From Desulfocapsa sulfexigens DSM 10523 (GTDB lineage Bacteria; Desulfobacterota; Desulfobulbia; Desulfobulbales; Desulfocapsaceae): a DNA stretch of 32,000 nt. The DNA is taken from positions 3,570,001 through 3,602,000 of the forward strand of contig NC_020304.1 of NCBI RefSeq assembly GCF_000341395.1, in the 5' to 3' direction. Shown piece by piece: positions 4,938 to 22,931 of the stretch. The position numbers and the translations under genes were made by a program. The stretch's first letter is position 1. The number at the start of each line of letters is the position of its first letter. The notes beneath the pieces are model-generated. The model had not been told where the DNA came from, did no database searches, and worked only from the letters and a program-made list of their open reading frames with translations.

Positions 4938-5143
4938 TTATCCGTTTCGACGATACTGGACTGCTTCGGCAATATGTGATATTTTAAGAAGTTCCTTATT
5001 ATCCATATCAGCGATTGTTCGGGCGATTTTAAGAATACGATGATATCCCCTGGCAGAAAGGCCAAGCTTTTCCACGCTTCTTTGCAATAAACGCTTTGCC
5101 GTTGCATCAACCTTGCAATATTTTTCCACTTCAGCTGGGCCAA
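4938..5143 (-). pseudogene. displaced 3' fragment of comM/yifB (attL-like direct repeat of 22726..22931)
   Basis: 206 bp matching the stop codon plus roughly the last 68 codons of the intact comM, with 5 mismatches by eye. The track ORF within it (4938..5129) translates as MEKYCKVDATAKRLLQRSVEKLGLSARGYHRILKIARTIADMDNKELLKISHIAEAVQYRRNG. Homology ends abruptly at 5143/5144 and no upstream comM sequence follows. Confidence 0.9.
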
Positions 5144-5325
5144 AAACTCACTATAATTGACATAGTCTCTTTGCAGCATTTTGAAAAGAATGAAAAAAAA
5201 CTTGGAAAAGATTAGTGTAGAAGATCAATCAGATTCTGACAGCAGGTCATGGGGCAAAGGAAGGGCAGGATTAGCTTTTGCAGTCAAACCCCACACCCTA
5301 CTGGACACCTCTGTTCGAGTAGTAA

Positions 5326-6207
5326 TCATTCCCTTTCTCTCCATTTGTCAATCTGATGCTGGAACGGATAGGGAACATCCCCATTTTGTTCGGGATAATC
5401 AGCACTACCGGTCTCCAGATTCAAATCAGTGAAATCGGAGAGTAGTGGCTCGGATGCATGCAGGTATTTTGTGATCATTATCGGCCCGGCCCACAGGATA
5501 TACTGTTCGTTGTATTCTGCTTCAACTGAGGCTGATTGTGGAACCATCACCAGCTGCCCGCTGAGATGGTCAATGGCCATAACCTCAAGGGCAGTTTTGG
5601 CTCTCAGTATTTCATTATTAGCCAGGAACCATTCAATTCTGGTTCGCACGGTTCCAAACACATCCACTGTAACATATACATCGATTTCAGCTTCCGAAGG
5701 TGGTACAACTGCTACCCCCTGCAGAAAAAAGTAAGTCTGTAATAGACCCGAAAGGTATTGCAGATCATCAGATGTTATTTCCTCTGAGTTATGGTACGCT
5801 CCCAGTCCCTTATATTCCAGACCGATTTGTATTTCATTTCCACTTCCTGTTGTTTCGGTATGTTTCTGTTCAGGTACGGCAAGAACTGAATCCGTAGAAC
5901 TTCTGCTGGAGGACGAGGTACGACTTTTCGTATTTTGATCACTGCTTTGTGAATCGGTAGTTGATGTGGACGAGCCAGAGGTCATCGATTGATATCGACG
6001 AAAAGTTGATTTTTCAATCACGGGAGGCGATTGAATATAATCCCCACGTACCTGCGAAACGAGAGAGAATCGACCGCCAATCAGGTTTCCTGCGCCCGTA
6101 TCTCCAATAGCACTCACATAAAGATTAACTTTTTTACCACGTATCGTTGTAAGATCAATTTTCTTTATCGTTGCACGTGTTGCGGCTGCGACCAACTCCT
6201 GCTCCAC
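5326..6207 (-). CDS. hypothetical protein with a Ser/Thr-rich low-complexity tract, possibly 5'-truncated
   Basis: 293-aa ORF starting at GTG with no signal peptide. An in-frame stop lies 14 codons upstream, inside the 25-nt repeat at 6246..6270. I recognise no family. Confidence 0.4.
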   Translation of the reverse strand: MEQELVAAATRATIKKIDLTTIRGKKVNLYVSAIGDTGAGNLIGGRFSLVSQVRGDYIQSPPVIEKSTFRRYQSMTSGSSTSTTDSQSSDQNTKSRTSSSSRSSTDSVLAVPEQKHTETTGSGNEIQIGLEYKGLGAYHNSEEITSDDLQYLSGLLQTYFFLQGVAVVPPSEAEIDVYVTVDVFGTVRTRIEWFLANNEILRAKTALEVMAIDHLSGQLVMVPQSASVEAEYNEQYILWAGPIMITKYLHASEPLLSDFTDLNLETGSADYPEQNGDVPYPFQHQIDKWRERE

Positions 6208-6245
6208 GGCGAAGCGTTTCCCTCCACCGTGTCCTGGGGGAGTCA

Positions 6246-6701
6246 GGGGTCAAGTCTGCCTTTGACCTTTGTAAACTTTTTTCCTTATCGTTCAAGGTCT
6301 TTTCTCGGTCCACTGTCACTCTCAATTCTAAATTCCACTCGCTGGACAACACTACTTTCCTAAAAATGAGAACACCGTTACCTGGCCTTATAGTCCCCCC
6401 AATTGAACCCCAAGGACAAAACTAACCTGTGTCAAGGGATTATTTGTCGATTATTCATCCAGTTACCTAGATCAGTCCCCATTGCCCACAGGCTGTTATA
6501 CAGAAAAAAAATTAGTCAGAAAAAAGGGGTCAAGCCTGCCCTTGACCTTTCTCTTCAATCGAGCAGCGAATGATATGGGCAACCCTTTAGTTTACCGACT
6601 ATTTTCCACATAGCCAAGCGCAAAAAAAACATGGGAGCAGAAATTCCAGGTTGATTTGATATCACACATTCACCACAAAGGTCAAAGGGAGACTTGACCC
6701 C
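6246..6701. mobile_element. MITE-like 456-bp element bounded by 25-bp terminal inverted repeats (GGGGTCAAGTCTGCCTTTGACCTTT), with a third internal copy
   Basis: Left copy at 6246..6270 (+). Right copy at 6677..6701 (-, 24/25 match). Internal copy at 6526..6550 (+, GGGGTCAAGCCTGCCCTTGACCTTT). Each copy contains a GGTCAA/TTGACC hairpin. No coding capacity and no obvious target-site duplication. Confidence 0.55.
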
Positions 6702-8011
6702 TTTTTTTTTACAATCAATTCACCTTCCAGGTTACCGAAAATATAATGCCTGTCTGTAAAATCCGGTACGCCGTTTCCTGCATAGGCATCTATGCCAAGG
6801 GTTGTGTCACAAAACTGCATATCATCGCCGGTGGGGGAAAGTGTATCTTCATGCATTGTTTGATAGAGAAAGAGGGAACGATCTTCGAGATATTGGGTTG
6901 AATATTCGGCAGCCACCAGATTGACATAGCCTGGCTGGTTGCCAGAGATGGCAAAACCAGCTAACGCGTTTAAGGCAAAAAGAAAGGCGTTGTCATTTTC
7001 TGCAGCACTTCGGAGAGCTTCGGCAGAATGCTCATGCAGTGATGTTACCGTCAAACCAGTCAGGCTATGGTCGTTGGCATACCCGGTTAATTCAATGGCA
7101 AGATCAACAGAGACCTGGGTGGGGTCAATACCGGCCTGAAAAACATTATTAACAACCGATAAGGCATGCTCATCGGGCATTTTTTCCAGAAAAGGGGTAA
7201 AGTCATCGGGATTATCACTGCCGCTGATGGTCGAGAAAAGATTGTAGATGCATAGAGAAGAGGTTAATCCAACGATACTGTGAGCAGTCAGTGGATTTTG
7301 TGCATCAACAGATATAATAATTGGTGTGGAGACGGAAAGGCCGACGGACGAAACAATATCGTCCGTTGCGACAATATTAGAAACTGGCAACACAGTAGGA
7401 AGAGCAATAGGATTATCTGGTGAAAGAGCACTTGAGATGGCTTCAATAATATTGCCGCCGACACCTGTCACCCCTGGTGCGTTGTAGATAAAGGTTTGTG
7501 TCACATCTGTAGAATATTCAAGTGTGAGATTGGTGGCAAGAAAACCGCCCAGTGAATGTCCCGTTACTAAAAAACCGGAATGAAGATCACCTAAATCCAC
7601 CCATTTTTCTACTTGCGCTGAAAGTGCTTTGTATTGTGCTTGGTATTCACTTGTGCCCAGTGCCCCAATATCAATAACGTCGGTAATAACGTCGTTAAGA
7701 TCGTTAGTGCCGCGCACGGCAATTACTTGTTTACCACTGCTATCCTCAAAAAGTGTTACTGATAAACCGGTAGGATTGAGAAAGGTATGCTCCAAACCAA
7801 ATTCGTCAACGTAACTCTCTTCGACAGTTCCATCGTATTGGTCGATAACATTCCAATTACTGGAGAAATCTTGGGCTTGGGTGAGCGTCATGCCATTGCC
7901 ATTGTTTTGTAATGCATCGGTATAATCTTTACCAGACATTCCTGGAGACAGATTTGAGTATGATGCAAGTGCAAGTTCAGCTTGTAGGTAATATTCACTA
8001 ATCGTACTCAT
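6662..8011 (-). CDS. class-3 lipase (GHSLGG) domain protein, 3'-truncated paralog lacking the RTX region (P1)
   Basis: 449-aa ORF with a lipase-like head (AVRGT ... VTGHSLGGFLA; GHSLGG codons at 7544..7561). The C-terminal ~180 aa are nearly identical to the 1153-aa paralog. That homology stops at 6712, and the last 16 codons (VKKKGSSLPLTFVVNV) read through a poly-T tract and the 25-nt repeat. Confidence 0.8.
   Translation of the reverse strand: MSTISEYYLQAELALASYSNLSPGMSGKDYTDALQNNGNGMTLTQAQDFSSNWNVIDQYDGTVEESYVDEFGLEHTFLNPTGLSVTLFEDSSGKQVIAVRGTNDLNDVITDVIDIGALGTSEYQAQYKALSAQVEKWVDLGDLHSGFLVTGHSLGGFLATNLTLEYSTDVTQTFIYNAPGVTGVGGNIIEAISSALSPDNPIALPTVLPVSNIVATDDIVSSVGLSVSTPIIISVDAQNPLTAHSIVGLTSSLCIYNLFSTISGSDNPDDFTPFLEKMPDEHALSVVNNVFQAGIDPTQVSVDLAIELTGYANDHSLTGLTVTSLHEHSAEALRSAAENDNAFLFALNALAGFAISGNQPGYVNLVAAEYSTQYLEDRSLFLYQTMHEDTLSPTGDDMQFCDTTLGIDAYAGNGVPDFTDRHYIFGNLEGELIVKKKGSSLPLTFVVNV
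6712..7255 (-). repeat. linker-module repeat shared with 16038..16581
   Basis: Collinear with a constant offset of 9326 nt and no indels. Near-identical by eye with scattered substitutions. Encodes ...NLFSTIS..DDFTPFLEKMPD.HALSVVNNVFQAGID...RHYIFGNLEGELI in both lipase paralogs. Confidence 0.85.
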
Positions 8012-8571
8012 TTTTTATATTCCTTTGTGAAAATTGAAGATTCAAAATTGGAGTTTCCAGTGATATCGAAGCATGAGAAACTTGATCCATGCCATAATCC
8101 AGGCAAATCACCACCACCTCGACCATAACGGACATATTCACCTAACACTTTACCATCAATACGTCTGACAATTCGAGTTTGCTTGCGTGTTACCTGAGGA
8201 TCATTTCTGTGGTAATAAAAAAGGTCACTTTCATAAAAATAATTATCCGTCGGTTTTGCTTTGGATTTGTCTGGTATTTTAATTCTACCAAATTTGTCAA
8301 TTAGGTCAGGCGGTAGCTCCACAGTTTCATAGACTTTTACACCACCATCTTTTGCACAGAGCTTCTCCACTTTGAGATCCCAATATATCTTCTTGCCAGC
8401 TACTTCCCAGAAAGTTCCGCCAAGCCAGACCGAAGAAAGAAGCACTCCAAGAAGGATATGTGAAATCTTTTGTGTTAAGTTCGCAGGCTTCCAATGTTGC
8501 CAGATACGATAGAGTACCCAGCTCACAAACAGCCAAATTGCAATCAGTGTTAATAAATAAATCCCGCTCAT
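8008..8571 (-). CDS. two-TM membrane protein, lipase-associated partner family member I1 (candidate immunity or accessory protein)
   Basis: 187-aa ORF. Its stop overlaps the lipase start (ATGA at 8008..8011). GGAGGG lies 7 nt upstream of the ATG. Two N-terminal hydrophobic helices separated by a basic loop. VYETVE motif and a C-terminal RRIDGKVLGEYVRY motif are shared in pattern with the ORFs at 12931, 17436 and 19443. Confidence 0.75.
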   Translation of the reverse strand: MSGIYLLTLIAIWLFVSWVLYRIWQHWKPANLTQKISHILLGVLLSSVWLGGTFWEVAGKKIYWDLKVEKLCAKDGGVKVYETVELPPDLIDKFGRIKIPDKSKAKPTDNYFYESDLFYYHRNDPQVTRKQTRIVRRIDGKVLGEYVRYGRGGGDLPGLWHGSSFSCFDITGNSNFESSIFTKEYKK

Positions 8572-8640
8572 GCTGCCACCCTCCAGTCAAATCTTGTGCC
8601 GTCGCCGTAATCACCCATAATGAAATCTCCGTGGATAAAT

Positions 8641-8894
8641 GGGGTCAGAGTAATTTTAAACTCCGCCCCATCAAGAAGATAAATAAAACAACAATCGTAG
8701 CAATCCATTATTTTTCACTAAGAGTGAAATAATTAACATCAAAACGGAGAAGCATCAACATCTAACATCTGTTATATTAGTACGTTATAGATGCCTAAGT
8801 GCTAACATCATTGTCATTTCAATGCCTCCAGATGTTTTCCTAAAAATTAAAGATAAAAAATAATAAAAACAACATTTTCAAGCTGTTCTCTGTT
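8641..8894 (-). repeat. conserved cassette-upstream region U (homologous to 22160..22378)
   Basis: Begins with the 32-nt element GGGGTCAGAGTAATTTTAAACTCCGCCCCATC (8641..8672). Contains a 39-nt block (8810..8848) matching 22289..22327 at 38 of 39 positions. Overall similarity is roughly three quarters by eye. Confidence 0.7.
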
Positions 8895-11290
8895 CGGTGA
8901 CAACGGGGTCGGACCAAATTAACAGTTTGAATATTAAACATTTTATCTCCAAAAGCAGATCTTTCTGGGGCTTAAAACACCCTTTTCAGTATCAAAAACA
9001 GTACTGTAAAGAATGTGGTTACAATAAAGCTAAAACCCCGATGGTACTCAACCGCTCTATCTCATCACTCTCAATCCCAACAAGCACAGGGCAAGTGAAC
9101 CTGATCACTCCCTGCATTTCCATAGAGTGCATCATCACCGGCTTCACCAAACAAGTTATCATTGTCAGTATCACCGTAGAGTTCATCATTACCGTTTCCA
9201 CCATACAGATTGTCTTCCCCCTGGCCTCCATATAACGCATCATCACCAATACCGGTTCCATCACTATTATCGCCATAGAGATAATCATTGTCTGATTCCC
9301 CGTATAAGAGATCATTCCCGTCTCCGCCCCGGAGTTGATCCTCACCACTTCCACCATACAATTCATCCATACCTGAACCGGTATTATCAGGGTTATCTCC
9401 TAAAAGAAGGTCATTTCCATCTCCGCCATAAAGTGAATCATCGTCTTCTCCACCGGCAAGACTGTCATTACCTATTTCTCCATGCAATGCATCATTGCCC
9501 AGACCTCCCTGGAGTACGTCATCGCCATGACCACCAAAAAGTGCATCTATACCGTCGCCACCAAAAAGATCGTCATTGTCATCATCGCCATAGAGGACAT
9601 CATTTCCTCCTGAACCGTAAAGCACATCTTCACCGGAGCCACCATGCAATTCATCATTTCCAGTACCACTTAAATCGCCATAATCACCATACAGATGATC
9701 ATCACCATCTCCACCGGAAAGGATATCGTCACCTCCCTCGCCAGCGAGTGCATCGTCACCGATCTCACCATAAAGGGAATCATCTCCTCCTCCGCCAAGC
9801 AGTTGATCATTACCCAGGCCACCGTAAAGTAGATCCTCACCGGTACCTGTGTTATTCCATTCATCTCCTCTTAAGACATCGTCACCATCTCCGCCGAAAA
9901 GCTGATCATTATCAAGGCCGCCATACATATCATCGTTACCCTCTCCACCATAGAGGATATCATTGCCTTCCTGGCCATAAAGCCTGTCAAGATCTTCTTC
10001 TCCAAACAAAACATCATTACCAAGTGATCCCTGAAGAAGATCGTCACCTGTGCCGCCCAGCAGATAATCATCTCCAGCGTCACCAAATAGCCTGTCAACA
10101 CCTTCTTCTCCAATGAGGGTGTCGTTGCCATTTCCCCCCATCAGGTTATCATCACCTATTCCGCCAAAAAGGATATCATTACCGTCTCCACCCCATGCGT
10201 TATCATTATCAGATTCTCCGTAGAGCTTATCATCACCACCCATACCAAGGAGTTGATCATCACCCAGACCACCATAAAGGGAGTCATTACCGTTTATTCC
10301 AAACAACGTATCGGAACCACCATAGCCATACACTGTAAAGGTGGAGAGAGCGGATACGTCACTGTCAAACAGGACAGTTTCACTTCCATCTGCATATTGG
10401 ATACTAAAATGATAATTCCAGGTATCGGCTGTTATCTGGCTCAGACTTGAAACTTCCATCTCATCAGTACCAGCCAGGGAGTTGGTGTTTGGAGTGGGCT
10501 CTACATAGTCAGCCAGATTGAAGCCGAAATCGCCCGAGGAAAAGGAGTTTATGGTAAAATAGAAATTACTGGCCAGGGAAAACAGGTTCAGCGTTTGATT
10601 GGTGGAGTCATAACGAACTCTGTAATTAGCATCTTCGTAGATGTCGCTGTTTTCCTGAATTTGATTAAAGGTGAGACCTGTTATCTGATTGGCTCCATAC
10701 CAGATGGTACCCTGATTATCCGCATCGTCAACAATATCGCCGACACCGATATGGTAGGTGTCATTGCCGATACCGCCGTAAAGGGTGTCTTGAACAAAAT
10801 CATCCACACCATCTATGCCTGCCCCATATAAGATATCATCTCCCCCAGCACCGTTTATTGTATCAATGCCGGTGCCGCCGGAGATGGTATCTTGATCACT
10901 ACTTCCGGTCAGGGTGTCCTGGCCTGCCCCACCTTCTATGCGGGCAATGTTGGAGACTGTTATTCCTGTTAAGTCTATGGTGTTGTCGCCTGCGGTTCCG
11001 GCCAGTATATTTAGTCCTTCTCCACCGTCTATTATTTCTATGGAGTTTTCTGCAAGGGAGAGGGTGTTTACTCGGATGGTGTCATCCAGGTTGCCTCCGA
11101 GGATTTTATCCTCATCACCAGTACCGCCGTTGAAGGTGTCGAAGGCTTCAGGATCTTCATCTGTGCCATGGATGATGAAGGTGTCGTTTCCGGCTCCTCC
11201 GTTCATGGTGTCGCTGCCGGAGCCTCCTTCGAGGATGTCGTTGCCGGCATTGCCGGTTAGGGTGTCATTGCCTGCCATGCCGTAGAGGTG
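8895..11290 (-). repeat. large direct repeat, copy 1 (RTX coding region plus 176-bp downstream tail); partner is 13784..16017
   Basis: Collinear near-identity by eye from the REP-like end (CGGTGACAACGGGGTCGGACC) through the whole RTX region up to the DHLYGM codons (11276..11290 vs 16003..16017). The length difference is 162 nt, explained by two in-frame indels of 108 and 54 nt. Confidence 0.9.
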
Positions 11291-12934
11291 ATCGTCACTG
11301 AGAGCACCAATCAATTTGGCGCTGTCATCTCCTTCCGTGCCAAAGATATAATCTCCATATGGAAGTTCTTCGTCGGGAGGATTGAGTTCAATACCTGATT
11401 GCAGATCATGAAAGTGTTTCTGCTCAGAGTAATTGTGCATGGTGTGGTAGAGGAATTTTGTTCTATCTTCGAAGTATTGTGATGAAAAGTTATCTAAATC
11501 TAACTCGTTGTTTGCATTCAAACTGCTATATTGACTATTCGGGCCCGTTATCGTGATGGGATTCAACCTTTGTAAAGCAAAGCGATATGCCATGCCAGTA
11601 CCATTATCTTGGCTTGCAAACGAAATAATGTCAGACTCTGAGATATCACCTAAAAATGATATTTCATATTGGCCTTGTGAAGATTGGGTTGCATTTCGAA
11701 CTTGAAATATCTTTTCATAGAGTTCTTCTCGAGCAACATCCCCGTTCTTTACGTCGAATGGTGAATAATCCTGTACGCATATTTCACCAAAGGTATTGAT
11801 AACCGTTTCGAGCGTTATATGGTTGTCTCTTCCTTGCCGATATGCATTGAAGACAGGGAGAAGAGATTGAAAAAACTGCGATCCATCCATCGAAGAATAC
11901 ATATCATCCAAGCGGCCAAAAAGGTCATAAACCGCCAGAGAATCTGTCATCTGTTCTTTTCCATGACCCGCAGTTGTTCCTGATAGAGATACAGATTCAA
12001 TAAATATTCCTTGGTGATCTCCTTGCTGACCGAGGGCAAACACACTGTCCATGGTCGTCATTTCCAGGAACTTATCACCAAAAATATTTAATATTTTCGA
12101 ACTCTCAAAAGAATCGCTTCCCCCAAGCATAGCAAAGAGGTTACGGATGTTGGTCTCGCCGTTCCCGCTCAAGCCACTAAGCGCTTCTGTCATATACCCA
12201 GCACCATTTATGGTCACAACATCATCACAGACAGAACCGAAAAGCCGTGAGAATGCAGCGGCCAGATGCCCACCCAAACTATGACCTACTGCTGTAACCT
12301 GTCCTTCAATATCATGGGATAACGCACCATATTGTCTTTCATCCGTGAATATTTCGTTCGAATAGACATCGGTGTTGATAGTGTATACCGTGCCGGTTGG
12401 CATATCGATTATGACATTATCCAATGTCCGCAGGTATAGTTCATATGGGCCGGCTACACCCAGAGGCATAGCAGTTTGTTCTGCCGCAAGTAGAGCCGTT
12501 TTGTCCGTCAACAGCTCCAATTCCGCTGCTTTATAGACGGTATTTGGAGCTGCATTTATTCTTTGCCAGTCGTTATACATGTCGACTATTTGCTTAATCG
12601 CCAGCCCATCGTAAACAATGTCACCACCGTCTGTAACGAGTAGATCGTCAATTCCCGGTTCCGTACCTCGGCATGCATAATGGTATTTGCCTGTGTTCTT
12701 ATTCCGAAAAAGAGTAGCTGAAAAGCCTGTATCGGTGTTGGGTTGGTGATAAATCACTTCCCAATTGTTGACAAAATCTTCAGCTTGCTCAGCTGTCATT
12801 TTGCCCTCAAAAGCGCTGTTTTGTAAAGCGTCTCTTATATCATCCTCAATAGTTAGATCCTCTATTTTATCAAAAAGAACGTAGGCCGCTTCAGACAATA
12901 ACGCCATATCGTAATAAATGGATGAACTGCTCAT
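9071..12934 (-). CDS. giant lipase-RTX protein (class-3/family I.3-like GHSLGG lipase head + hemolysin-type Ca-binding repeats), P2
   Basis: 1287-aa ORF. Head motifs are ACRGT and AVGHSLGGHLAAAF, followed by a unique middle region. Then come two blocks of GGxGxDxUx nonapeptides (several dozen units) separated by a non-repeat beta-rich module. The ORF ends only 13 aa after the last repeat (..GSDQVHLPCACWD). Confidence 0.9.
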   Translation of the reverse strand: MSSSSIYYDMALLSEAAYVLFDKIEDLTIEDDIRDALQNSAFEGKMTAEQAEDFVNNWEVIYHQPNTDTGFSATLFRNKNTGKYHYACRGTEPGIDDLLVTDGGDIVYDGLAIKQIVDMYNDWQRINAAPNTVYKAAELELLTDKTALLAAEQTAMPLGVAGPYELYLRTLDNVIIDMPTGTVYTINTDVYSNEIFTDERQYGALSHDIEGQVTAVGHSLGGHLAAAFSRLFGSVCDDVVTINGAGYMTEALSGLSGNGETNIRNLFAMLGGSDSFESSKILNIFGDKFLEMTTMDSVFALGQQGDHQGIFIESVSLSGTTAGHGKEQMTDSLAVYDLFGRLDDMYSSMDGSQFFQSLLPVFNAYRQGRDNHITLETVINTFGEICVQDYSPFDVKNGDVAREELYEKIFQVRNATQSSQGQYEISFLGDISESDIISFASQDNGTGMAYRFALQRLNPITITGPNSQYSSLNANNELDLDNFSSQYFEDRTKFLYHTMHNYSEQKHFHDLQSGIELNPPDEELPYGDYIFGTEGDDSAKLIGALSDDHLYGMAGNDTLTGNAGNDILEGGSGSDTMNGGAGNDTFIIHGTDEDPEAFDTFNGGTGDEDKILGGNLDDTIRVNTLSLAENSIEIIDGGEGLNILAGTAGDNTIDLTGITVSNIARIEGGAGQDTLTGSSDQDTISGGTGIDTINGAGGDDILYGAGIDGVDDFVQDTLYGGIGNDTYHIGVGDIVDDADNQGTIWYGANQITGLTFNQIQENSDIYEDANYRVRYDSTNQTLNLFSLASNFYFTINSFSSGDFGFNLADYVEPTPNTNSLAGTDEMEVSSLSQITADTWNYHFSIQYADGSETVLFDSDVSALSTFTVYGYGGSDTLFGINGNDSLYGGLGDDQLLGMGGDDKLYGESDNDNAWGGDGNDILFGGIGDDNLMGGNGNDTLIGEEGVDRLFGDAGDDYLLGGTGDDLLQGSLGNDVLFGEEDLDRLYGQEGNDILYGGEGNDDMYGGLDNDQLFGGDGDDVLRGDEWNNTGTGEDLLYGGLGNDQLLGGGGDDSLYGEIGDDALAGEGGDDILSGGDGDDHLYGDYGDLSGTGNDELHGGSGEDVLYGSGGNDVLYGDDDNDDLFGGDGIDALFGGHGDDVLQGGLGNDALHGEIGNDSLAGGEDDDSLYGGDGNDLLLGDNPDNTGSGMDELYGGSGEDQLRGGDGNDLLYGESDNDYLYGDNSDGTGIGDDALYGGQGEDNLYGGNGNDELYGDTDNDNLFGEAGDDALYGNAGSDQVHLPCACWD

Positions 12935-13503: not shown

Positions 13504-13520
13504 TCTTCTACCTCCCCGTT

Positions 13521-16017: not shown

Positions 16018-17421
16018 GTCTTCCTTGGAATTGCCTTCAATCAATTCGCCTTCCAGGTTACCGAAAATATAATGCCTGTCTGTAAAATCCGGTACGCCGT
16101 TTCCTGCATAGGCATCTATGCCAAGGGTTGTGTCACAAAACTGTATATCATCGCCGGTGGGGGAAAGTGCATCTTCATGCATTGTTTGATAGAGAAAGAG
16201 GGAACGATCTTCGAGATATTGGGTTGAATATTCGGCAGCCACCAGATTGACATAGCCTGGCTGGTTGCCAGAGATGGCAAAACCAGCTAACGCGTTTAAG
16301 GCAAAAAGAAAAGCGTTGTCATTTTCTGCAGCACTTCGGAGAGCTTCGGCAGAATGCTCATGCAGTGATGTTACCGTCAAACCAGTCAGGCTATGGTCGT
16401 TGGCATACCCGGTTAATTCAATGGCAAGATCAACAAAGACCTGGGTGGTGTCAATACCGGCCTGAAAAACATTATTAACAACCGATAAGGCATGCCCATC
16501 GGGCATTTTTTCCAGAAAAGGAGTAAAGTCATCGGCATTGTTGCTGCTGCTGATGGTTGAAAAAAGGTTGTAGACGTACAGGGATTCGACAAGAGTACCG
16601 ATAGAATGGTAGTGAACGGGGTTGAATGTACTATCGCTGATAGAAATATTGACATCGGCACTCCCGATATCAGTTCCAAGATCGGCGACAAGATCATGGG
16701 GTATATCCCACCAAGTTTCTGAGGATTTGACATTTGTTACCAGGCTGTCGACTCCGTTCTTATTAGACTCAAAGTTGGAATAAGCGTCATAAAGCTCTTG
16801 TGTGATTTCTACTGGCCCAAACAACGATTCACCGGTTATATCATCATAACCAATAAAGGCTTCTTTATAATATCTCCCATTACTTGTCGATAATTCTGGA
16901 GATTCCAGATCTTTTGCACCTGGAGAATTATAAGTGTAACTCTCATCAACAAAATCGGTATAGGTCGCGGTAAAGATCTGAGCTAATGCACCACCCAAGG
17001 AATGACCTGTAACAGTAAGCTTTTCTCCGCTTAATACCTTATCATCTTCTTGAAGCTTTTCGAAAAATGATACCATGTCTTCAAATTGGAGCGGCGTATT
17101 GCCTGCTTTTAGCCCGAGAATATCATCATCCCAATCAGTGCCAATCAATTGGTCGGTTCCACGGATGGCCAGTATTTTTTTACCACTATTAATGTCTTCA
17201 AACAACGTGGCGCTGAATCCGCTTTCTGGACCTATGTTGTATTCGGCGCTGGTGGCAAGGACATTGTAGTGCTCAACAAAATTATCAGCCTGTTTTTGAG
17301 TAAAATTACGGTCATTCTTTAGTGACTTTATAATGTCATCATCCAATGTAGTTTGTATGATATCAATATAGCTTGCATCAGCCAATTCACCAAATTGTAA
17401 CAATTCTGGAATAGTTGCCAT
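13960..17421 (-). CDS. giant lipase-RTX protein, P3 (different lipase head, same RTX chassis as P2)
   Basis: 1153-aa ORF. Head motifs are AIRGT and VTGHSLGGALAQIF. The linker is identical in type to P1. The RTX blocks and the C-terminus (..GSDQVHLPCACWD) are near-identical to P2. Confidence 0.9.
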   Translation of the reverse strand: MATIPELLQFGELADASYIDIIQTTLDDDIIKSLKNDRNFTQKQADNFVEHYNVLATSAEYNIGPESGFSATLFEDINSGKKILAIRGTDQLIGTDWDDDILGLKAGNTPLQFEDMVSFFEKLQEDDKVLSGEKLTVTGHSLGGALAQIFTATYTDFVDESYTYNSPGAKDLESPELSTSNGRYYKEAFIGYDDITGESLFGPVEITQELYDAYSNFESNKNGVDSLVTNVKSSETWWDIPHDLVADLGTDIGSADVNISISDSTFNPVHYHSIGTLVESLYVYNLFSTISSSNNADDFTPFLEKMPDGHALSVVNNVFQAGIDTTQVFVDLAIELTGYANDHSLTGLTVTSLHEHSAEALRSAAENDNAFLFALNALAGFAISGNQPGYVNLVAAEYSTQYLEDRSLFLYQTMHEDALSPTGDDIQFCDTTLGIDAYAGNGVPDFTDRHYIFGNLEGELIEGNSKEDHLYGMDGNDTLTGNGGNDILEGGSGSDTMNGGADNDTFIIHGTDEDPEAFDTFNGGTGDEDKILGGNLDDTIRVNALSLADNSIERIDGGAGENILAGTSGDNTIDLTGITVTHINRIEGGGGADTITGSSGDDILYGGTLTNQEDNVRDTLSGGIGNDTYHIGVGDIVDDADNQGTIWYGANQITDLTFNQVQENSDIYEDANYRVRYDSTNQTLNLFSLASNFYFTINSFSSGDFGFNLADYVEPTPNTNSLTGTDEIEISSLSQITADTWNYHFSIQHADGSETILFNSDVSALSTFTVYGYGGSDTLFGINGNDSLYGGLGDDQLQGMGGDDKLYGESDNDNAWGGDGNDILFGGIGDDNLMGQNGNDTLIGEEDLDRLYGQEGNDILYGGEGNDDMYGGLDNDQLFGGDGDDVLRGDEWDNTGTGEDLLYGGLGNDQLLGGGGDDSLYGEIGDDALAGEGGDDILSGGDGDDHLYGDYGDLSGTGNDELHGGSGEDVLYGSGGNDTLYGDDDNDDLFGGDGIDALFGGHGDDVLQGGLGNDALYGEIGNDSLAGGEDDDSLYGGDGNDLLLGDNPDNTGSGMDELYGGSGDDQLRGGDGNDLLYGESDNDYLYGDNSDGTGIGDDALYGGQGEDNLYGGNGNDELYGDTDNDNLFGEAGDDALYGNTGSDQVHLPCACWD
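16038..16581 (-). repeat. linker-module repeat shared with 6712..7255
   Basis: See 6712..7255. Confidence 0.85.
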
Positions 17422-17435
17422 CTCTAGCCCCCTAG

Positions 17436-18149
17436 CTAATTATCTTTTGATTTCAGTGTGTTATATATCAATACTTCACTATTACCTTTAAATGGGCAAA
17501 GTGTTCCAAGAGAACCATCAACATTGAGCAATGTCGCCCTAAGCCACCCTCTATTCCATCTGTACATTACTCGAATCCCCAAAGTCTCATTATGATGTCT
17601 GTCATTGATTTCCGTATAGATAAATTTATCTATAGTCGGTATTGCCAGGATTCTTTGGTCTTTGTTAGGCTGATAAGCTACCTCATACCTGCTGACTTCA
17701 TCAGGTTGCAATGGCTTCACTGCAAAACAAGGTATTTCCTGGTCAAAGGATTCTTTAAACTTATATTCATCCTTCTTTTTTGGCTTATAGCACCCTTCAG
17801 AACTTGCATCATTTAACCAATAACTACGAAAGAATTCACCGGTTTCTTCAACCTGGTAATCAATATATTTATAATTTTTATTTGGCATGCGGGGAGTACG
17901 TTTTATTCTCAATTCGCCCACATAAAACCCTTCCACATTCTCCACGGTCTTATAAATCTTCATGCCGGATTTAAATTTGCAGAAGTACCAGAAGGTGGGG
18001 TAGCCGATTATCACATCCCAGCTAGGAATTAGAGCCAGAATAATAATTCCAATGATTCTGCCTTTTGTTGATTTTGCGACCAAAACAATTACCAGTAATC
18101 CCAAAAGGAGGTAGATAGCTGCACCAAATATGACAAGAATCTGAATCAT
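17436..18149 (-). CDS. two-TM membrane protein, lipase-associated partner family member I3
   Basis: 237-aa ORF ending 14 nt upstream of the P3 start, with an AGGGGG RBS in the gap. Layout is TM1, KSTKGR loop, TM2. Motifs IYKTVE and YTEINDRHHNETLGIRVMY. Confidence 0.75.
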   Translation of the reverse strand: MIQILVIFGAAIYLLLGLLVIVLVAKSTKGRIIGIIILALIPSWDVIIGYPTFWYFCKFKSGMKIYKTVENVEGFYVGELRIKRTPRMPNKNYKYIDYQVEETGEFFRSYWLNDASSEGCYKPKKKDEYKFKESFDQEIPCFAVKPLQPDEVSRYEVAYQPNKDQRILAIPTIDKFIYTEINDRHHNETLGIRVMYRWNRGWLRATLLNVDGSLGTLCPFKGNSEVLIYNTLKSKDN

Positions 18150-18361
18150 TGCTCTCTCTCCTTTGTTTTTATCTCTCGGTGAAGCATGATAACAAGGACA
18201 AGACTTATCAAGACAATGATTCCGGGAGGTATGAGTAATATATAAAAATTATCTCCATCCTTTCCTTCCCTCATGGCCAGTCCAATCATCCGAACAAACC
18301 AGCTCGTACCAAATAATATCCCGGCATAGCCGACTAATAACAAAACTATTCTGAACATCAT
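18146..18361 (-). CDS. small two-TM membrane protein (71 aa), first gene of the cassette-3 operon
   Basis: Its stop overlaps the I3 start (ATGA at 18146..18149). Two hydrophobic helices. AAAGGTGAGAGA RBS-like sequence before the ATG. Confidence 0.55.
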   Translation of the reverse strand: MMFRIVLLLVGYAGILFGTSWFVRMIGLAMREGKDGDNFYILLIPPGIIVLISLVLVIMLHREIKTKEREQ

Positions 18362-18450
18362 TCTCTCACCTTTACTCTTTTTGAACTACTTTTTACCTCT
18401 TAAGAAAATGCCTAGAAAACCAAAACACGGGGTCAGCAAAACACGCAACA

Positions 18451-18482
18451 CGGAGTCAGAGTAAACTTAAACTCACCCCATC
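18451..18482 (-). repeat. degenerate third copy of the 32-nt element seen at 8641..8672 and 22160..22191
   Basis: CGGAGTCAGAGTAAACTTAAACTCACCCCATC versus GGGGTCAGAGTAATTTTAAACTCCGCCCCATC. It has a 1-nt deletion relative to the others. Confidence 0.6.
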
Positions 18483-18486
18483 TATT

Positions 18487-19434
18487 AATACGGGGTCGGA
18501 CCAAGCTAACATGCTGAATGTTAAACATTTTGTCTCCAATAATAGGTGTTTTTATGGCTTAGAGTACCCTTTTCAGCATCAAAAACAGTGCTGTAAGGAA
18601 TTCCAGGCTCTTTCAAAACAGTAGCATCTTTGACTGAAAGTATGGATCGCTTCTGTGCCCGGCTTGCAAGTTGCTGCTGAATATCTTCTGTAAATGATTT
18701 CCTGCCAACGGCAATGGACTCACTCCAATCTTGATTTCTTGTTAGGACGTTATTGTTTAGCTCAGCTGTTATCCAGTTAGTGTGCTCTTCGCGAAATCTG
18801 TTTTCATCCTGCATTGAAAAATAATCCAACAACATCTTCCTGTTGATAATGCCGTAACGCTTTGGAGGATTTTGAATTTCATTGTAACCACTATTTCTGT
18901 ATTCAGATGGATGTGATACGACGCCTGCCCTGACCATATTAAGATCAATATAGACCATGCATTTTGCAAGATGGTTGATTGTGTCAACGGCCGTGGCATG
19001 ATATCGGTCTTCCCAAAACGAACCTTTCCTCTGTTTCCGACTATTGAACTCCTGAGCTGTTCTTCCTGCAATTAACTGAAGACTTTGTGGAATAGTTTTT
19101 TCCCCTGTATCGACAACAAGTAAGTGGATATGGTTGGAAGTGACAATGTAATTTAGAACGCAAAGCCCATACCGCTTTTTTGCTTCGAATAACCAATAAA
19201 GCCAGCGTTTTCTGTCTTTTTCAAATTTCAGTAAAAACTCCTGCTTATGACATCGGTGTGTGATGTGCCAAACACAACCAGGAATATAATGTCTATTTGC
19301 TCGTGGCATGGTAGTTTAAATTTTCTTAGAAGGTTGTTTTGGACAACAAAAAGTTACCTTTAAGTGTTTATATGGCTTTTATTTCATAATATTTCTTGTT
19401 ATTCCTATATATTGGCTTGGTCCGACCCCGTATT
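18487..19434 (-). mobile_element. RAYT/IS200-like unit bounded by perfect 20-bp inverted repeats (AATACGGGGTCGGACCAAGC)
   Basis: 18487..18506 is the exact reverse complement of 19415..19434. The match breaks on both sides. The repeats enclose the 262-aa Y1 transposase ORF. This is the REP-flanked arrangement typical of REP-associated tyrosine transposases. Confidence 0.8.
18521..19309 (-). CDS. IS200-like Y1 (HUH) transposase, REP-associated tyrosine transposase (RAYT) type
   Basis: 262-aa ORF with N-terminus MPRANRHYIPGCVWHITHRC. HUH motif SNHIHLLV. Tyr motif YIDLNMVRAGVV (compare YxxxNPVRAGLV in COG1943/PF01797 proteins). Carries a ~100-aa C-terminal extension. Confidence 0.85.
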   Translation of the reverse strand: MPRANRHYIPGCVWHITHRCHKQEFLLKFEKDRKRWLYWLFEAKKRYGLCVLNYIVTSNHIHLLVVDTGEKTIPQSLQLIAGRTAQEFNSRKQRKGSFWEDRYHATAVDTINHLAKCMVYIDLNMVRAGVVSHPSEYRNSGYNEIQNPPKRYGIINRKMLLDYFSMQDENRFREEHTNWITAELNNNVLTRNQDWSESIAVGRKSFTEDIQQQLASRAQKRSILSVKDATVLKEPGIPYSTVFDAEKGTLSHKNTYYWRQNV

Positions 19435-19442
19435 CAACCGAG

Positions 19443-20390
19443 TTACCTCCGGTTTTCATGATATTTTTTTGATAATATTTTCAGCAAAGAATTATTTCTC
19501 CCTTGACGCGATCCATAAACATCTATTGATCCGAACAAAATCTTGTCAACAAACTGATAGGCCTGTTTGTCACCAAGCACCTGATGAAAATCAGGATTTG
19601 CACCGCCAAATTCGGAAAGCCAGTTCCCATATGCCATATACCTGCGGGAGAAGGCGATCACCTCGTTTTTCTCCATATCGGTGATGGTGATCTCGTCGGT
19701 GTGTAATAGTCTGGAGGCGGGGTAGCCGGTCTTTACCATGTTGAAATCCACCCGGTAGCGCATGGGTGGCAGTTTGTCCGGGGAAGCGAAGCCCTCAGCC
19801 CGATCCATGATGCTTTGTAATTCGCTTTTCCATGGTTCGTAATATGCACCAAACTCCGTAGAATTTTTTTCTATTTCTCTGATTGTCCGCCACAGTTCTC
19901 TGTTATCTAGACCCTTGCCACCCTTGCGGCGGACCTCCCTTGCACTTTCTTTCATAGCGTCCAGTTCCCGTTTTTTCTGATCCCGAGCTGGTCGCATTTT
20001 TTCACTCTCGGCAAAAGTTGAAGCATCGGCCCGGTACAGATAGATTTTCCCGTCATCGCCATTCACGGCCAGGGCCTGGAGATGCACGCCGTCAAGATAT
20101 TTTTCAACCATGCTTTCACGAAAGTGTTTGTCAAATCCCGGCCAGACATTGTCCTGCCAATACACAGAAATCGGCGCTTCAACGGTCTGATGAATCACCT
20201 GCAAGGGCTGCTTGCCGTAATACTCAAACAGCAAGTTGCACAGGATCGGCCGCCAGAATGGGCCGAAGATGAGCAGCAGCACTCCCAGCCACACCACTGC
20301 CTTCGACTTCGTCCACCGCTTGACGAGATACAACACAATCGCTCCCGCAAGCAGATAAATGGTTACAACAATAAGCAACGCTATTCCCAT
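19443..20390 (-). CDS. two-TM membrane protein, partner family member I4 (orphan: no adjacent lipase gene)
   Basis: 315-aa ORF. Layout is TM1, KRWTKSK loop, TM2. Motifs IHQTVE and ITITDMEKNEVIAFSRRYMAY. Its stop lies 8 nt from the RAYT inverted repeat. Confidence 0.7.
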   Translation of the reverse strand: MGIALLIVVTIYLLAGAIVLYLVKRWTKSKAVVWLGVLLLIFGPFWRPILCNLLFEYYGKQPLQVIHQTVEAPISVYWQDNVWPGFDKHFRESMVEKYLDGVHLQALAVNGDDGKIYLYRADASTFAESEKMRPARDQKKRELDAMKESAREVRRKGGKGLDNRELWRTIREIEKNSTEFGAYYEPWKSELQSIMDRAEGFASPDKLPPMRYRVDFNMVKTGYPASRLLHTDEITITDMEKNEVIAFSRRYMAYGNWLSEFGGANPDFHQVLGDKQAYQFVDKILFGSIDVYGSRQGRNNSLLKILSKKYHENRR

Positions 20391-20464
20391 ACTGTTATTC
20401 TCCCGTGGGTATTTTGGTGTTCAGAAACAGGAAAACTCATTTGCCCCGGCGCGTAACAACGGGC

Positions 20465-20491
20465 GTGACAACGGGGTCGAACCAAGTTAAC
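20465..20491 (-). repeat. REP-like element, type A (GTGACAACGGGGTCGAACCAAGTTAAC)
   Basis: Same sequence as the ends of the tails at 8897..8922 and 13786..13811. Here it stands alone, directly abutting a type B copy. Confidence 0.75.
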
Positions 20492-20493
20492 TT

Positions 20494-20791
20494 AATACGG
20501 GGTCGGACCAAGCTAACATGCTGAATGTTAAACATTTTATCTCCAACAATACGTGTTTTTATGGTTTAGAGTACCCTTTTCAGCATCAAAAACGGTGCTG
20601 TAAGCAATTTCAGGCTCTTTCAAAACAGTAGCATCTTTGACTGAAACTATGGATCGCTTCTGTGCCCGGCTTGCAAGTTGCTGCTGAATATCTTCTGTAA
20701 ATGATTTTCTGCCAACGGCAATGGACTCACTCCAATCTTGATTTCTTGTTAGGACGTTATTGTTTAGCTCAGCTGTTATCCAGTTAGTGTG
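20494..20791 (-). pseudogene. 3' fragment of the RAYT gene with REP-like end (type B, second copy)
   Basis: Near-identical to 18487..18784. Encodes HTNWITAELNNNVLTRNQDWSES...KNTYCWR only and lacks the HUH and Tyr motifs. Confidence 0.85.
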
Positions 20792-20794
20792 AAC

Positions 20795-20960
20795 GCTAAC
20801 ACGGGATCGGACCAAGCTAACAACTTGAATATTAATAATTTTGTATCCAGAAACAGCCGTTACCTGGCCTTAGAGTGCCCTTTTTGCCATCAAAATGTGT
20901 GTCGTAAGAATCTTGACCAGCAACATTAGCATCCTTAACGGTTTATATTTTGGTCAACGA
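20795..20960 (-). repeat. divergent RAYT-3'-like tail with REP-like end (type C) downstream of the DUF4915-like gene
   Basis: GCTAACACGGGATCGGACCAAGCTAAC followed by sequence recognisably related to the RAYT 3' end (..GKKGTLRPGNGCFWIQN in translation). Much more diverged than types A and B. Confidence 0.55.
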
Positions 20961-21037
20961 ACTATTTCAAAGCTCAACGGTTATCCAACCACTGTATTAT
21001 TCACAATAATTAATTTTCTTTTTGTAAAGGATTTTTG

Positions 21038-22123
21038 CTATAACGTAGCTGCTGGCCCAATGGTAATCATCCGTTCTATCTCATCACTTTCAAAACCAAC
21101 AAGTAGAGGACAGATGGAACCCGGTATTGTAATCACGTCATACAATTCCTTGACTACACCTTCAATTATAAGGCTATGTACTATTTCTCCCGACTGAGTA
21201 TCAATAACCTGCAAGCCACAGCACTCCCCCCCAAGTGAAGGCAGCAAGTCATCCAAAACAAGATCTTGAAAAGCTGTACTTCCACGAGGACGTGAGAGAC
21301 CTACAATTGCATAGTTATCTACAAAGGTAAGCCCCCTAAGATAGCCAGGACATTTAGCGACCTGAATAAACTCGCTTTTGTTCAGGTATCCGAATTCACC
21401 CTTACCGGAGTTTAGTAACCAAATTTTGCCTTTGTAAAACCTGGGGGAATGGGGCATGGAAAGCCCTTGGGCGACAATTTCATTGGAGGCGACATCAATA
21501 ACAACCCCTCCATTCTGCCTGTTTTCTTTCTTTCTCCAGCCACCTCTTGAATTGGAGCGGGAAATTGACGTCACAACATATGGTTTTCCATCTCGCATTG
21601 CCAGACCGTTAAGATGGCATCTGTCTTCAGGGACAAGCTCTGAAATAAATTCAGGTTTCCATAGGGGAATAAAACTATGGGTGTTACTTGTTGTGGCCAA
21701 ACAATTAAACAATGTATTCACAAACAGAGGACGATTGTTATACCAGGCAATATCATGTCCACTCACCTTACCTGTTGTAAAGGCGAGCTGGGGAACATAC
21801 ACCTTGTCGTGCCCTTTATAATTTTCTCCAGGACTAGTGACATTATTGAGCTGCCATATTTGATAAAGAGTAGTGGTCAGCAAACGGTTCTTCTCTTCAT
21901 TGAGGCAAAGCCCCATACATCTGGCAAAATTTCTTTCATAAACAGAAAGTGATTGTTGCTTACTATCAAGCCCGACGAAAAGCAATTTCCCGGACTGATA
22001 TGTTGAGAAGGCTAGTGAAACATCATGGCTTCGAAGCCAGTTTTCTATTCCAAAACTTGCCTTGAGAACAAAATGTTTGGATTGAATTACAATCGAATTG
22101 TATTCAGTATTATTATTGGGCAT
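21038..22123 (-). CDS. TIGR03032/DUF4915-like uncharacterised protein (tentative family call)
   Basis: 361-aa soluble ORF. The motifs SMPHSPRFYKGKIWLLNSGKGEFG, RGLTFVDNYAIVGLS and CGLQVIDTQSGE recall that family from memory. An HMM search is needed to confirm. Confidence 0.75.
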   Translation of the reverse strand: MPNNNTEYNSIVIQSKHFVLKASFGIENWLRSHDVSLAFSTYQSGKLLFVGLDSKQQSLSVYERNFARCMGLCLNEEKNRLLTTTLYQIWQLNNVTSPGENYKGHDKVYVPQLAFTTGKVSGHDIAWYNNRPLFVNTLFNCLATTSNTHSFIPLWKPEFISELVPEDRCHLNGLAMRDGKPYVVTSISRSNSRGGWRKKENRQNGGVVIDVASNEIVAQGLSMPHSPRFYKGKIWLLNSGKGEFGYLNKSEFIQVAKCPGYLRGLTFVDNYAIVGLSRPRGSTAFQDLVLDDLLPSLGGECCGLQVIDTQSGEIVHSLIIEGVVKELYDVITIPGSICPLLVGFESDEIERMITIGPAATL

Positions 22124-22159
22124 AACTTGTCAGGCTCTGTTTGTTTTTCCTGCATAAAA

Positions 22160-22378
22160 GGGGCCTGGGTAAAATCAAATTCAGCCCCATCAATAAGATA
22201 AACAAAACGATTAACACCCAAATAGTGAAACATCAACACTTAATACTCGTTATATCAGCATGTTGCATGTAGAGCAATCGCCAACATAATTGTCATTTCA
22301 ATGGCTCCAGATGTTTTCCTAAAAATTTGGCTACAAATAATAATTAAAATAAATTCAAATGTTCTCTGTCCTGTTAAC
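22160..22378 (-). repeat. conserved cassette-upstream region U, second copy (partner of 8641..8894)
   Basis: Begins with GGGGCCTGGGTAAAATCAAATTCAGCCCCATC (22160..22191). Contains the 39-nt conserved block at 22289..22327. Confidence 0.7.
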
Positions 22379-22456
22379 GCAATATTGACTTTTTTTGCTA
22401 CTTTTCACTTTTCCACTAATGACACTCTTTATTTTGACAGGTTTGGTTAATGCGGC

Positions 22457-22676
22457 AATACGGGGCCTGACCAATTTAAAATGCTGAATTTTCATCCTGC
22501 ATAGAAAAGCAATCCAACACCATCTTTCTGTTGATAATGCTGTAAGGCTTTGGTGGTTTTGATTTTCATTGTAACCACTGGTTTTGTATTCAGATGGATG
22601 TGATACAACTCCAGCCCTGACCATATTACCATCAATATAGACCATGCATTTTGCAAGATGACTGAGTGAATGAACA
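22457..22676 (-). pseudogene. degenerate RAYT remnant (REP-like end fused to an internal gene segment)
   Basis: AATACGGGGCCTGACCAAT..ATGCTGAAT is joined directly to sequence homologous to 18801..~18990 of the intact gene (..YIDGNMVRAGVVSHPSEY..). It is frameshifted and truncated. It lies 50 nt from the comM stop. Confidence 0.75.
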
Positions 22677-22725
22677 ACAAGTAGGTGGGCGTCGGTGCCT
22701 TTCCAGATGGTCCTTATTTCAAAGA

Positions 22726-22931
22726 TTATCCATTTCGACGATACTGGACGGCTTCGGCAATATGTGATAATTCAAGAAGTTCCTTATTATCCATATCAGC
22801 GATTGTTCGGGCGATTTTAAGAATACGATGATATCCCCTGGCAGAAAGGCCGAGCTTTTCCACGCTTCTTTGCAATAAACGCTTTGCCGTTGCATCAACC
22901 TTGCAATATTTTTCCACTTCAGCTGGGCCAA
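22726..22931 (-). repeat. attR-like direct repeat: functional 3' end of comM, duplicated at 4938..5143
   Basis: See 4938..5143. Homology ends at 22931/22932. Confidence 0.9.

Follow-up and report, generated by a model that had tools for sequence, protein, structure and literature searches.

Elements that replace the 3' end of the gene into which they integrate include e14 and phage 21 in icd of Escherichia coli, SGI1 at trmE, and the dusA- and guaA-type islands. They encode a tyrosine integrase, usually together with an excisionase, next to the attachment (att) site by the target gene. In streptococci, cis-mobilisable elements (CIMEs) are att-flanked remnants of integrative and conjugative elements (ICEs) or integrative and mobilisable elements (IMEs), and they are presumed to be decay products that are moved only by a recombinase supplied in trans. 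The comM gene is also a target of mobile DNA: the Tn7-like transposons of the AbaR/Tn6022 family, which carry tniABC-type genes, interrupt comM of Acinetobacter baumannii with a 5-bp target duplication. In Acidithiobacillus ferrooxidans ATCC 23270, the 94.9-kb element iMGE6 lies in comM, and the table of the paper describing it lists an integrase, RitABC and a 14-bp repeat (PMC10322971). Here we describe a 17.6-kb island at the 3' end of comM in Desulfocapsa sulfexigens DSM 10523. The analysis covered a stretch of 32,000 nucleotides of its chromosome (NC_020304.1, positions 3,570,001 to 3,602,000), which we call the window, and coordinates refer to the window unless another locus is named.

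A copy of the comM 3' end stands on either side of the island, which is most probably an ordinary genomic island that has become immobilised. As with e14 and phage 21 in icd and SGI1 at trmE, its repeats overlap the 3' end of a conserved gene, the gene is kept intact by an end that the element supplied, the displaced original end survives as a fragment, and the differences between the two ends lie away from the crossover end. Unlike those elements, it has no integrase, and its cargo is not phage-, ICE- or IME-like; because the integrase is missing, it is not an autonomous integrative element in the defining sense. The att-like repeats and the lack of recombination and transfer genes are shared with the CIMEs, and mobilisation in trans may be shared as well by analogy, but the island could not be paired with a cognate element or integrase. 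It uses the same hotspot as AbaR/Tn6022, but without Tns or Tni genes, with a duplication of about 240 bp, and with comM intact. Like iMGE6, it is a genomic island in comM with flanking direct repeats, and it differs in that the integrase, the RitABC genes and the 14-bp repeat are features of iMGE6 (PMC10322971). Both the hotspot and the kind of island are known, and the present case is a fossil att-flanked island at comM.

Duplication of the comM 3' end

An earlier note on this DNA, made from the sequence alone, had counted by eye five mismatches between direct repeats at 4938-5143 and 22726-22931. BLASTN-short returned exactly this pair (206 nt, 97.6% identity, 5 mismatches). MAFFT and a repeat finder placed it at 4935-5143 and 22723-22931 (209 nt, 97%), and gapped BLASTN extended the homology beyond the comM stop codon, to 4906-5143 and 22700-22931 (238 columns, 93.3%, one 6-nt indel). 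A repeat match of 200 nt at 97% cannot be due to chance. The interval between the repeats, 5144-22722, is 17.58 kb. The features concerned are as follows (aa, amino acids).

4906-5143, minus strand: left (distal) repeat; displaced comM 3' fragment with ComM aa 439-506, stop codon at 4938-4940, and about 32 nt downstream; attR-like
22700-22931, minus strand: right (proximal) repeat; last 68 codons and stop codon of the intact comM, and about 26 nt downstream; attL-like
22726-24246, minus strand: comM (yifB), intact, encoding a Mg-chelatase-like AAA+ ATPase of 506 aa

The right copy completes an intact comM, as the note had proposed: ChlI, Mg_chelatase and Mg_chelatase_C of Pfam were all matched in 22726-24246, and TIGR00368 scored 650 bits. 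The repeat had been said to cover the stop codon and roughly the last 68 codons, and it spans ComM aa 439-506 and the stop. The left copy consists of this portion only. Its product is 95.6% identical to ComM aa 439-506 and covers only positions 28-94 of the Mg_chelatase_C profile, and in-frame stops lie just upstream; this fragment is non-functional. No third comM fragment was found within the 32-kb window. A mis-join of the assembly at the repeat, for which nothing specific speaks, is scarcely credible, since the chromosome of 3,986,761 bp is finished (PMC3739170), comM is intact, and the copies can be told apart by 5 differing positions and by their flanks.

An empty site in the closest relative

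The comparison set consisted of 159 comM loci from genome and metagenome collections. Only one relative in this set, L001 (the same contig as L082), was close enough for the search for an empty site that the note had recommended. It is a metagenome-assembled genome of a Desulfocapsa sp., the closest among the 159 loci, and its ComM is 84% identical. The gene order there is GFO-LpxB-RluA-MoeA-QueE-QueD-DUF1015-methyltransferase-ComM-[524 bp]-hybrid kinase-HD-GYP regulator, which matches the window on both sides with nothing inserted. L001 thus has a single comM 3' end where the island is missing, and the island genes are not part of the syntenic core there. From this empty site with its conserved flanks, it follows that the 17.6 kb are an insertion.

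552-1619: HD-GYP response regulator; with the hybrid kinase, native downstream neighbour of comM in L001
1594-4665, minus strand: hybrid sensor kinase; native downstream neighbour of comM in L001
5144-22699, no strand: inserted island, 17.6 kb; absent from the syntenic L001 locus

To the left of the left repeat, 4833-4872 showed weak collinear homology to the spacer between comM and the kinase gene of L001 (77.5% over 40 nt), whereas the DNA beyond the right copy showed no such homology. This resemblance indicates that the left copy is the one in the native context. Different genes stand after comM in L002 and in Desulfobulbales that are more distant, most often one for a DUF3352 protein.

Divergence of the two copies and the proposed crossover

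In the gapped BLASTN alignment, the two copies differ by 12 events, 11 substitutions and one 6-nt indel. The differences crowd toward the outer, stop-codon end (mean position 4951 versus a midpoint of 5024.5, permutation p = 7e-5). The 32 nt past the stop codon hold 7 of the 12 (six substitutions and the 6-nt indel), and the inner 79 nt (5065-5143) are identical. Such clustering suits two diverged gene ends with an identical inner region that was open to crossover, and it argues against a recent copy made in place and decaying evenly. Both non-synonymous changes fall in the dead left copy, where KI replaces the conserved EL. Polarisation of the five coding differences by L001 made the left copy ancestral-like at two sites and the right copy at three, a split that favours neither copy. 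The non-coding homology downstream of the stop codon in both copies is not shared with L001, which points to a very close relative of the host, and not to a distant donor, as the source of the second copy.

The topology, one reciprocal crossover between the comM end and a homologous segment of a circle, is well supported because the proximal copy is functional, the distal copy is dead and in the native context, an empty site exists, and the divergence is allele-like. According to the mechanism that we propose, the island would enter by this single crossover within the comM 3' end, at about codon 438 and next to the conserved motif CNAQ(M/I). The incoming molecule, presumably a circle, would carry its own comM-like segment of about 240 bp, which spans the final 68 codons with the stop and some 30 nt beyond it. 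The incoming copy (22700-22931) would then complete comM, and the original end (4906-5143) would be displaced by 17.6 kb and still abut the native spacer and the kinase gene. The crossover would be the work of a site-specific recombinase of an integrative element, whose gene would either have been lost by deletion or reside elsewhere. The island itself has been heavily eroded and reshuffled by deletions and duplications associated with two kinds of repeated sequence. These are the repetitive extragenic palindromes (REPs) with their associated tyrosine transposase (RAYT), and an element resembling a miniature inverted-repeat transposable element (MITE). The island could leave only with the help of a recombinase supplied in trans, or when RecA recombines one repeat with the other.

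An in-place rearrangement would account for the repeats differently. The island would have reached the spacer between comM and the kinase gene in some other way, and the left fragment would be a local duplication or template switch linked to breakage at RAYT/REP sequences or at the MITE-like element. There are indeed many local duplications and deletions within the island that have a REP or the MITE-like element at their junctions, and a RAYT fragment adjoins the right junction. However, the strong non-uniformity of the differences (p = 7e-5) and the indel in the outer 32 nt would not be expected of copies that were born identical, no copy of the REP or of the hairpin lies within 1 kb of the left junction, and the full REP consensus is found at neither junction. 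Y1/RAYT transposases are, to our knowledge, not known to duplicate their targets. We consider the in-place rearrangement quite unlikely.

Search for a recombinase

All open reading frames (ORFs) of the island were compared with Pfam, NCBIfam and PHROGs. These comparisons detected the Y1/RAYT transposase only, and no integrase, excisionase or Tn7-type gene. A six-frame Pfam scan of the unannotated segments 4666-6700, 8500-9100, 20380-21060 and 22100-22760 returned nothing but the comM fragment. Within the sensitivity of these searches, the results bear out what had been read from the letters alone, namely that tyrosine and serine integrases, excisionases and Tn7-like genes are absent and that a RAYT is the sole transposase. 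A tblastn search with 10 large serine recombinases from comM-associated proviruses (described below) revealed no remnant in the island. The DUF4915 protein, the largest in the island that is otherwise unaccounted for, was considered as a hidden recombinase and rejected, since its model is a beta-propeller (predicted local distance difference test score, pLDDT, 90.2) with YWTD-type propellers as its closest PDB structures. The window was scanned for tRNAs and Rfam families without a match, and so the site is not of the tRNA/tmRNA type. The whole island had no megablast match in a plasmid collection, and the exact element-side junction had none in viral contigs. The genome paper of D. sulfexigens makes no mention of an island, an integrase or a transposase (PMC3739170).

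The note had interpreted the repeats as the footprint of site-specific integration. From this interpretation, the insertion and the att-like scar stand on the empty site and the topology of the repeats, while none of the evidence points to a particular enzyme. It had left the choice between a lost integration module and an unusual mechanism; loss would be the likelier and simpler of the two, and the evidence speaks neither for nor against an unusual mechanism.

Recombinase-bearing proviruses at comM

IMG/VR was scanned with a profile of the ComM C-terminal part, which gave 73 loci, and a second time with the N-terminal part. Many provirus contigs end in a partial comM starting at aa ~215, 273, 300-307, 330-339, 345-352 or 381. 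At least 10 genes for large serine recombinases stand directly beside the 3' part of comM (L173, L186, L169, L188, L192, L177, L178, L200, L203 and L204), and their products carry a Resolvase domain, mostly plus Recombinase and Zn_ribbon domains. The matching 5' halves from the N-terminal scan stop abruptly at aa ~217, 284, 352-357, 386 and 477. The breaks of the 5' and 3' halves at the same conserved motifs indicate that these prophages split comM without a duplication. A search of the literature on insertions in comM yielded one relevant precedent, the 94.9-kb island with an integrase in A. ferrooxidans (PMC10322971). Together with the recombinases of the proviruses, this island independently shows that comM is a recurrent recombinase target, in line with the statement of the note that comM is a hotspot in other bacteria.

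The island shares the comM target with these prophages, and a locus of the comparison set, L094 (see below), bears their junction signature. It is unlike them in that their sites are at aa ~215-386 and ~477 and that of the island at 438, and in that comM of the window is intact with 68 codons duplicated and has no recombinase gene or remnant adjoining.

Two further sets of matches were set aside. A tblastn search of a phage collection with the ComM C-terminus was uninformative, as its matches were bacterial contigs labelled as phage or whole comM genes. Short ComM-like viral matches starting at aa 443-470 proved to be contig-end truncations or mini ComM-like proteins of phages, and not att fragments. 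In three viral contigs, a protein of about 360 aa with PF07508 ('Recombinase') as its only domain is encoded directly after a comM-like gene (L209, 4223-5305; L214, 6179-7264; L206, 341-1459). The comM-like gene is near-complete in L209 and L214, and is cut by the contig start in L206. The Resolvase catalytic domain was not detected in these three PF07508 proteins.

comM duplications without an integrase

In a survey of up to 10 kb around the 159 comM genes (2.05 Mb in total), four further loci were found to hold an intact comM and a displaced piece of it.

L078 (Geobacteraceae contig), 549-2962: comM aa 433-502, 72% nucleotide identity; an MNT/HEPN toxin-antitoxin pair between
L094, 7991-15663: comM from aa 351, 450 nt, 94%; 5.7 kb between
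L130: comM aa 411-502; two ordinary-looking genes between
L013, 10946-13803: 765 nt, made up of the comM end with 177 nt of adjoining spacer; a single HTH gene within 1.6 kb between

Of the 55 direct-repeat pairs in the surveyed DNA, 4 are formed by comM 3' ends, which suggests an enrichment of such pairs at comM. No recombinase was found in any of the five comM duplications (the window, L013, L078, L094 and L130), and no gene is common to them.

The junction of the fragment in L094, 'PHGCPCGY', is identical to the junctions of the recombinase-bearing proviruses L204, L172 and L200. A comM duplication that lacks an integrase can therefore be derived from an insertion made by a recombinase. The insert of L094 contains a DUF4258/DUF2283 pair, a GH141-like gene, a Y1 transposase gene with a DnaA_C domain and an HTH gene.

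The duplication boundary of L078 lies 16 nt from that of the window, on the other side of the conserved CNAQM motif. Its copy of the C-terminus measures 62 aa with a 30-nt deletion, and is followed by a primase-polymerase-like gene, which may resemble proteins of the TOTE conflict systems. The DNA 3' of comM in L078 may represent a small defence island. The segment duplicated in L013 comprises 588 nt of comM and 177 nt of spacer at 98-99% identity, and the second copy lacks 302 nt internally. An event driven by homology, or a tandem duplication, would suit this arrangement in L013 better than an att site.

The main rival of the proposed integration is a homology-driven origin of the island, with no dedicated integrase at this step. 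It has two versions. In version (a), a circle bearing a comM 3' end from a close relative was inserted by a RecA-mediated single crossover (Campbell insertion). In version (b), an element split comM at about codon 438, and the gene was later repaired by recombination with an intact allele, the exchange being anchored by homology in comM at one end and completed by an illegitimate join within the island at the other. The original 3' part would then be the fossil, and the proximal part of the island would have been deleted. Several features fit such an origin. The second copy is 97.6% identical, and the ~30 nt of non-coding homology that are missing in L001 point to DNA of the host lineage. A truncated RAYT gene lies 12 nt from the end of the repeat, which is what an illegitimate join would leave. 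Version (b) in particular would account for this broken gene and for the host-like second copy. The L013 segment with its 177 nt of spacer is hard to read as an attP, the inner boundaries vary among the comM duplications (aa 315, 351, 411, 433 and 438), and none of the five (0/5) has a recombinase. The serine-recombinase prophages only split the gene, yet L094 combines their junction with an intact comM. However, version (a) requires an unexplained circular intermediate with a comM end, and version (b) requires two events and the additional deletion of the recombinase gene, which adjoins the distal fragment in the proviruses examined. Moreover, at least the first step would appear to be targeted site-specifically, given the enrichment seen at comM and its conserved motifs. 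A homology-driven origin of the island is possible, though we think it doubtful. A broader form of the idea, to which we give a little less credit still, is that five independent duplications in Desulfobacterota record the recurrent homology-driven repair of split comM genes from intact alleles, or the RecA-mediated re-insertion of host-derived ends that circles had captured.

Contents and decay of the island

All genes of the island are on the minus strand. Its features are as follows.

5326-6237, minus strand: PF26521 (MAFA_adhesin family) gene, UWK_03218; about 50 N-terminal codons missing
6245-6702, no strand: MITE-like element, 458 bp; inverted repeats of 28 nt at its ends (96% complementary), and the hairpin a third time in the interior
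6662-8011, minus strand: truncated lipase-type (GHSLGG) paralogue of the RTX-lipases; 537 nt 97% identical to 16038-16574
8008-8571, minus strand: small protein with an N-terminal hydrophobic (probable transmembrane) segment, family member 1
9071-12934, minus strand: RTX-lipase, 1287 aa; 20 HemolysinCabind matches; 3' end enters an out-of-frame DUF4915 remnant
12931-13503, minus strand: family member 2, a small protein that is hydrophobic at the N-terminus
13519-13830, minus strand: REP and RAYT 3' fragment (RAYT aa 189-262)
13960-17421, minus strand: RTX-lipase, 1153 aa; 66% identity to the RTX-lipase of 1287 aa, and a DUF4915 remnant at the 3' end as in that copy
17436-18149, minus strand: family member 3, a small protein that is hydrophobic at the N-terminus
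18484-19434, minus strand: intact RAYT unit; Y1 transposase gene at 18521-19309, HIH motif and Tyr visible in the sequence
19443-20390, minus strand: 315-aa protein with an N-terminal hydrophobic segment, family member 4; no lipase gene adjoining
20492-20815, minus strand: REP and RAYT 3' fragment (RAYT aa 176-262)
21038-22123, minus strand: DUF4915 / TIGR03032 protein; beta-propeller model
22488-22687, minus strand: internal fragment of a second, more diverged RAYT, frameshifted (aa 104-170); 12 nt from the comM-homologous segment

The island segment 5326-6207 matches UWK_03218 of D. sulfexigens DSM 10523 at 100% identity, and DUF4915 has a match in this genome as well. In relatives, PF26521 closes an operon of the order giant RTX gene, C39-ABC exporter, membrane fusion protein, PF26521; the exporter and membrane fusion protein genes are absent from the window. 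The MITE-like element is built on the hairpin GGGGTCAAGNCTGCCNTTGACC, of which all three copies lie within 6245-6702, and it stands exactly at the meeting point of the truncated lipase gene and the 5'-truncated PF26521 gene. This position suggests a transposon-associated deletion that took out the ABC exporter and membrane fusion genes.

Both RTX-lipase ORFs stop ('...VHLPCACWD*') within an out-of-frame remnant of the last ~24 DUF4915 codons (9022-9135 and 13911-13982), and an 86-nt repeat occurs in three places (9008-9093, 13897-13982 and 21027-21112). Because the RTX repeats reach the stop codon, there seems to be no room for a C-terminal type I secretion signal in the RTX-lipases, and judged from their sequences, these genes may be non-secretable relics. 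The four proteins with a hydrophobic N-terminus have no family assignment and are weakly related at that end (best pair, E = 3.6e-5). Three of them are encoded directly downstream of lipase-type genes. The pairs of a lipase and a small protein resemble a polymorphic effector/immunity arrangement, and an immunity role for the small proteins would be a guess. DUF4915 follows the giant RTX gene in relatives, and for example adjoins it in L166; its best matches outside the clade include cyanobacteria. Related RTX clusters occupy other places in chromosomes, beside mraZ in L162 and beside IDH in L166. PF26521 and DUF4915, the genes at the two ends of the island, are in relatives members of such chromosomal RTX/type I secretion neighbourhoods. 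Two non-coding segments of about 160 nt (8732-8893 and 22210-22369) are 74% identical with a 48-nt core at 94%. They lie upstream of the first small-protein gene and upstream of the DUF4915 gene, respectively, and may be a shared promoter or leader.

The RAYT is flanked by inverted REP copies (18487-18512 and 19409-19434), and its profile scores were E = 2.6e-10 for Y1_Tnp and 62 bits for REP_Tyr_transpos, the latter below the NCBIfam cut-off of 80. The REP motif ACGGGGTCGGACCAAGYTAAC has 8 copies in the 32-kb window, all of them inside the island (8903-20821), and a unit of REP and the last 75-265 nt of the RAYT gene is repeated 3-6 times at module boundaries. The RAYT with its inverted and dispersed REPs is a RAYT/REP system that forms an internal component of the island. 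The intact RAYT (262 aa) has a C-terminal extension of about 120 aa past the usual RAYT length.

Signs of decay are thus the 5'-truncated PF26521 gene, the absent exporter genes, the RTX ends made of DUF4915 remnants, at least 4 RAYT fragments, and the MITE-like element at a deletion junction. The cargo is a duplicated, eroding accessory cluster of the RTX-lipase/type I secretion kind, reshuffled around the RAYT, the REPs and the MITE-like element.

In the Desulfobulbaceae-like metagenome contig L086, an apparently intact Y1 transposase gene (IS200-like/RAYT-like, 4098-4868) lies 113 nt downstream of comM. Y1 transposases are therefore present near comM at three loci, the window, L086 and L094. 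Three in about 160 comM loci may be compatible with chance if such genes are common, as we assume. A new mobile element that is still active, with the RAYT or an unannotated island protein catalysing integration at comM, might be proposed on these grounds: the RAYT gene appears intact with inverted REP flanks, a Y1-type gene also stands downstream of comM in L086 and another inside the insert of L094, and several island proteins have no family assignment. However, this number of Y1 genes may be fortuitous on the assumption just given, no gene is common to the five comM duplications, DUF4915 is a beta-propeller, the unannotated proteins are small with a hydrophobic N-terminus and stand beside lipase genes, and the cargo is visibly decaying. 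An active element of this kind is highly improbable.

Discussion

We give about an even chance to the proposal that the island is the fossil of a site-specific, single-crossover integration at about codon 438 of comM, with the recombinase lost or acting in trans. A site-specific recombinase is favoured for the crossover because comM is targeted at conserved motifs, L094 shows a path of decay, and the island has deletion scars.

Several observations weigh against this proposal. As the island holds neither an integrase or excisionase nor a pseudogene of either, the key step is unobservable. Phage, conjugation and replication genes were not found in the island by Pfam and PHROGs, and its cargo has the appearance of an accessory cluster of the chromosome and not of a phage, ICE, IME or other recognisable mobile element. 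The GC content of the island is not distinctive (0.38-0.50, versus 0.41-0.49 in the flanks). Arm-type motifs of at least 9 nt in direct orientation that are common to both island ends were sought and not found. A broken RAYT gene stands 12 nt from the right repeat, at the island side of the junction by comM, so that the present island ends are secondary and there is no pristine attP flank. The serine-recombinase prophages found here split comM and leave no duplication. ORFs within 4 kb 3' of intact comM were surveyed in about 150 relatives, whose loci had been selected for full-length comM. Phage_integrase and Resolvase are not among the 25 families listed there, although the listed families were mostly matched by at least two ORFs and a single integrase occurrence could be missed. 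Finally, the 97.6% identity and the host-like non-coding homology fit a homology-driven event equally well.

The locus is a clean, well-delimited example of the comM hotspot outside Gammaproteobacteria, in which the empty site and the native flank are known and the att-like copies are both present. It would also show how an island can persist as an att-flanked fossil after the loss of the recombinase. In D. sulfexigens, the island is mainly a decaying cluster of toxin-like RTX-lipase genes that probably has little present function. Of wider use is the observation that serine-recombinase prophages target several conserved motifs of comM, and that some lineages end with an intact comM and a displaced fragment. 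If the homology-driven reading were true, the cargo would be trapped, and islands would be created and fixed without an integrase at the final step. If the restoration of comM is driven by homology, it would bear on how frequently genes disrupted by prophage insertion are repaired.

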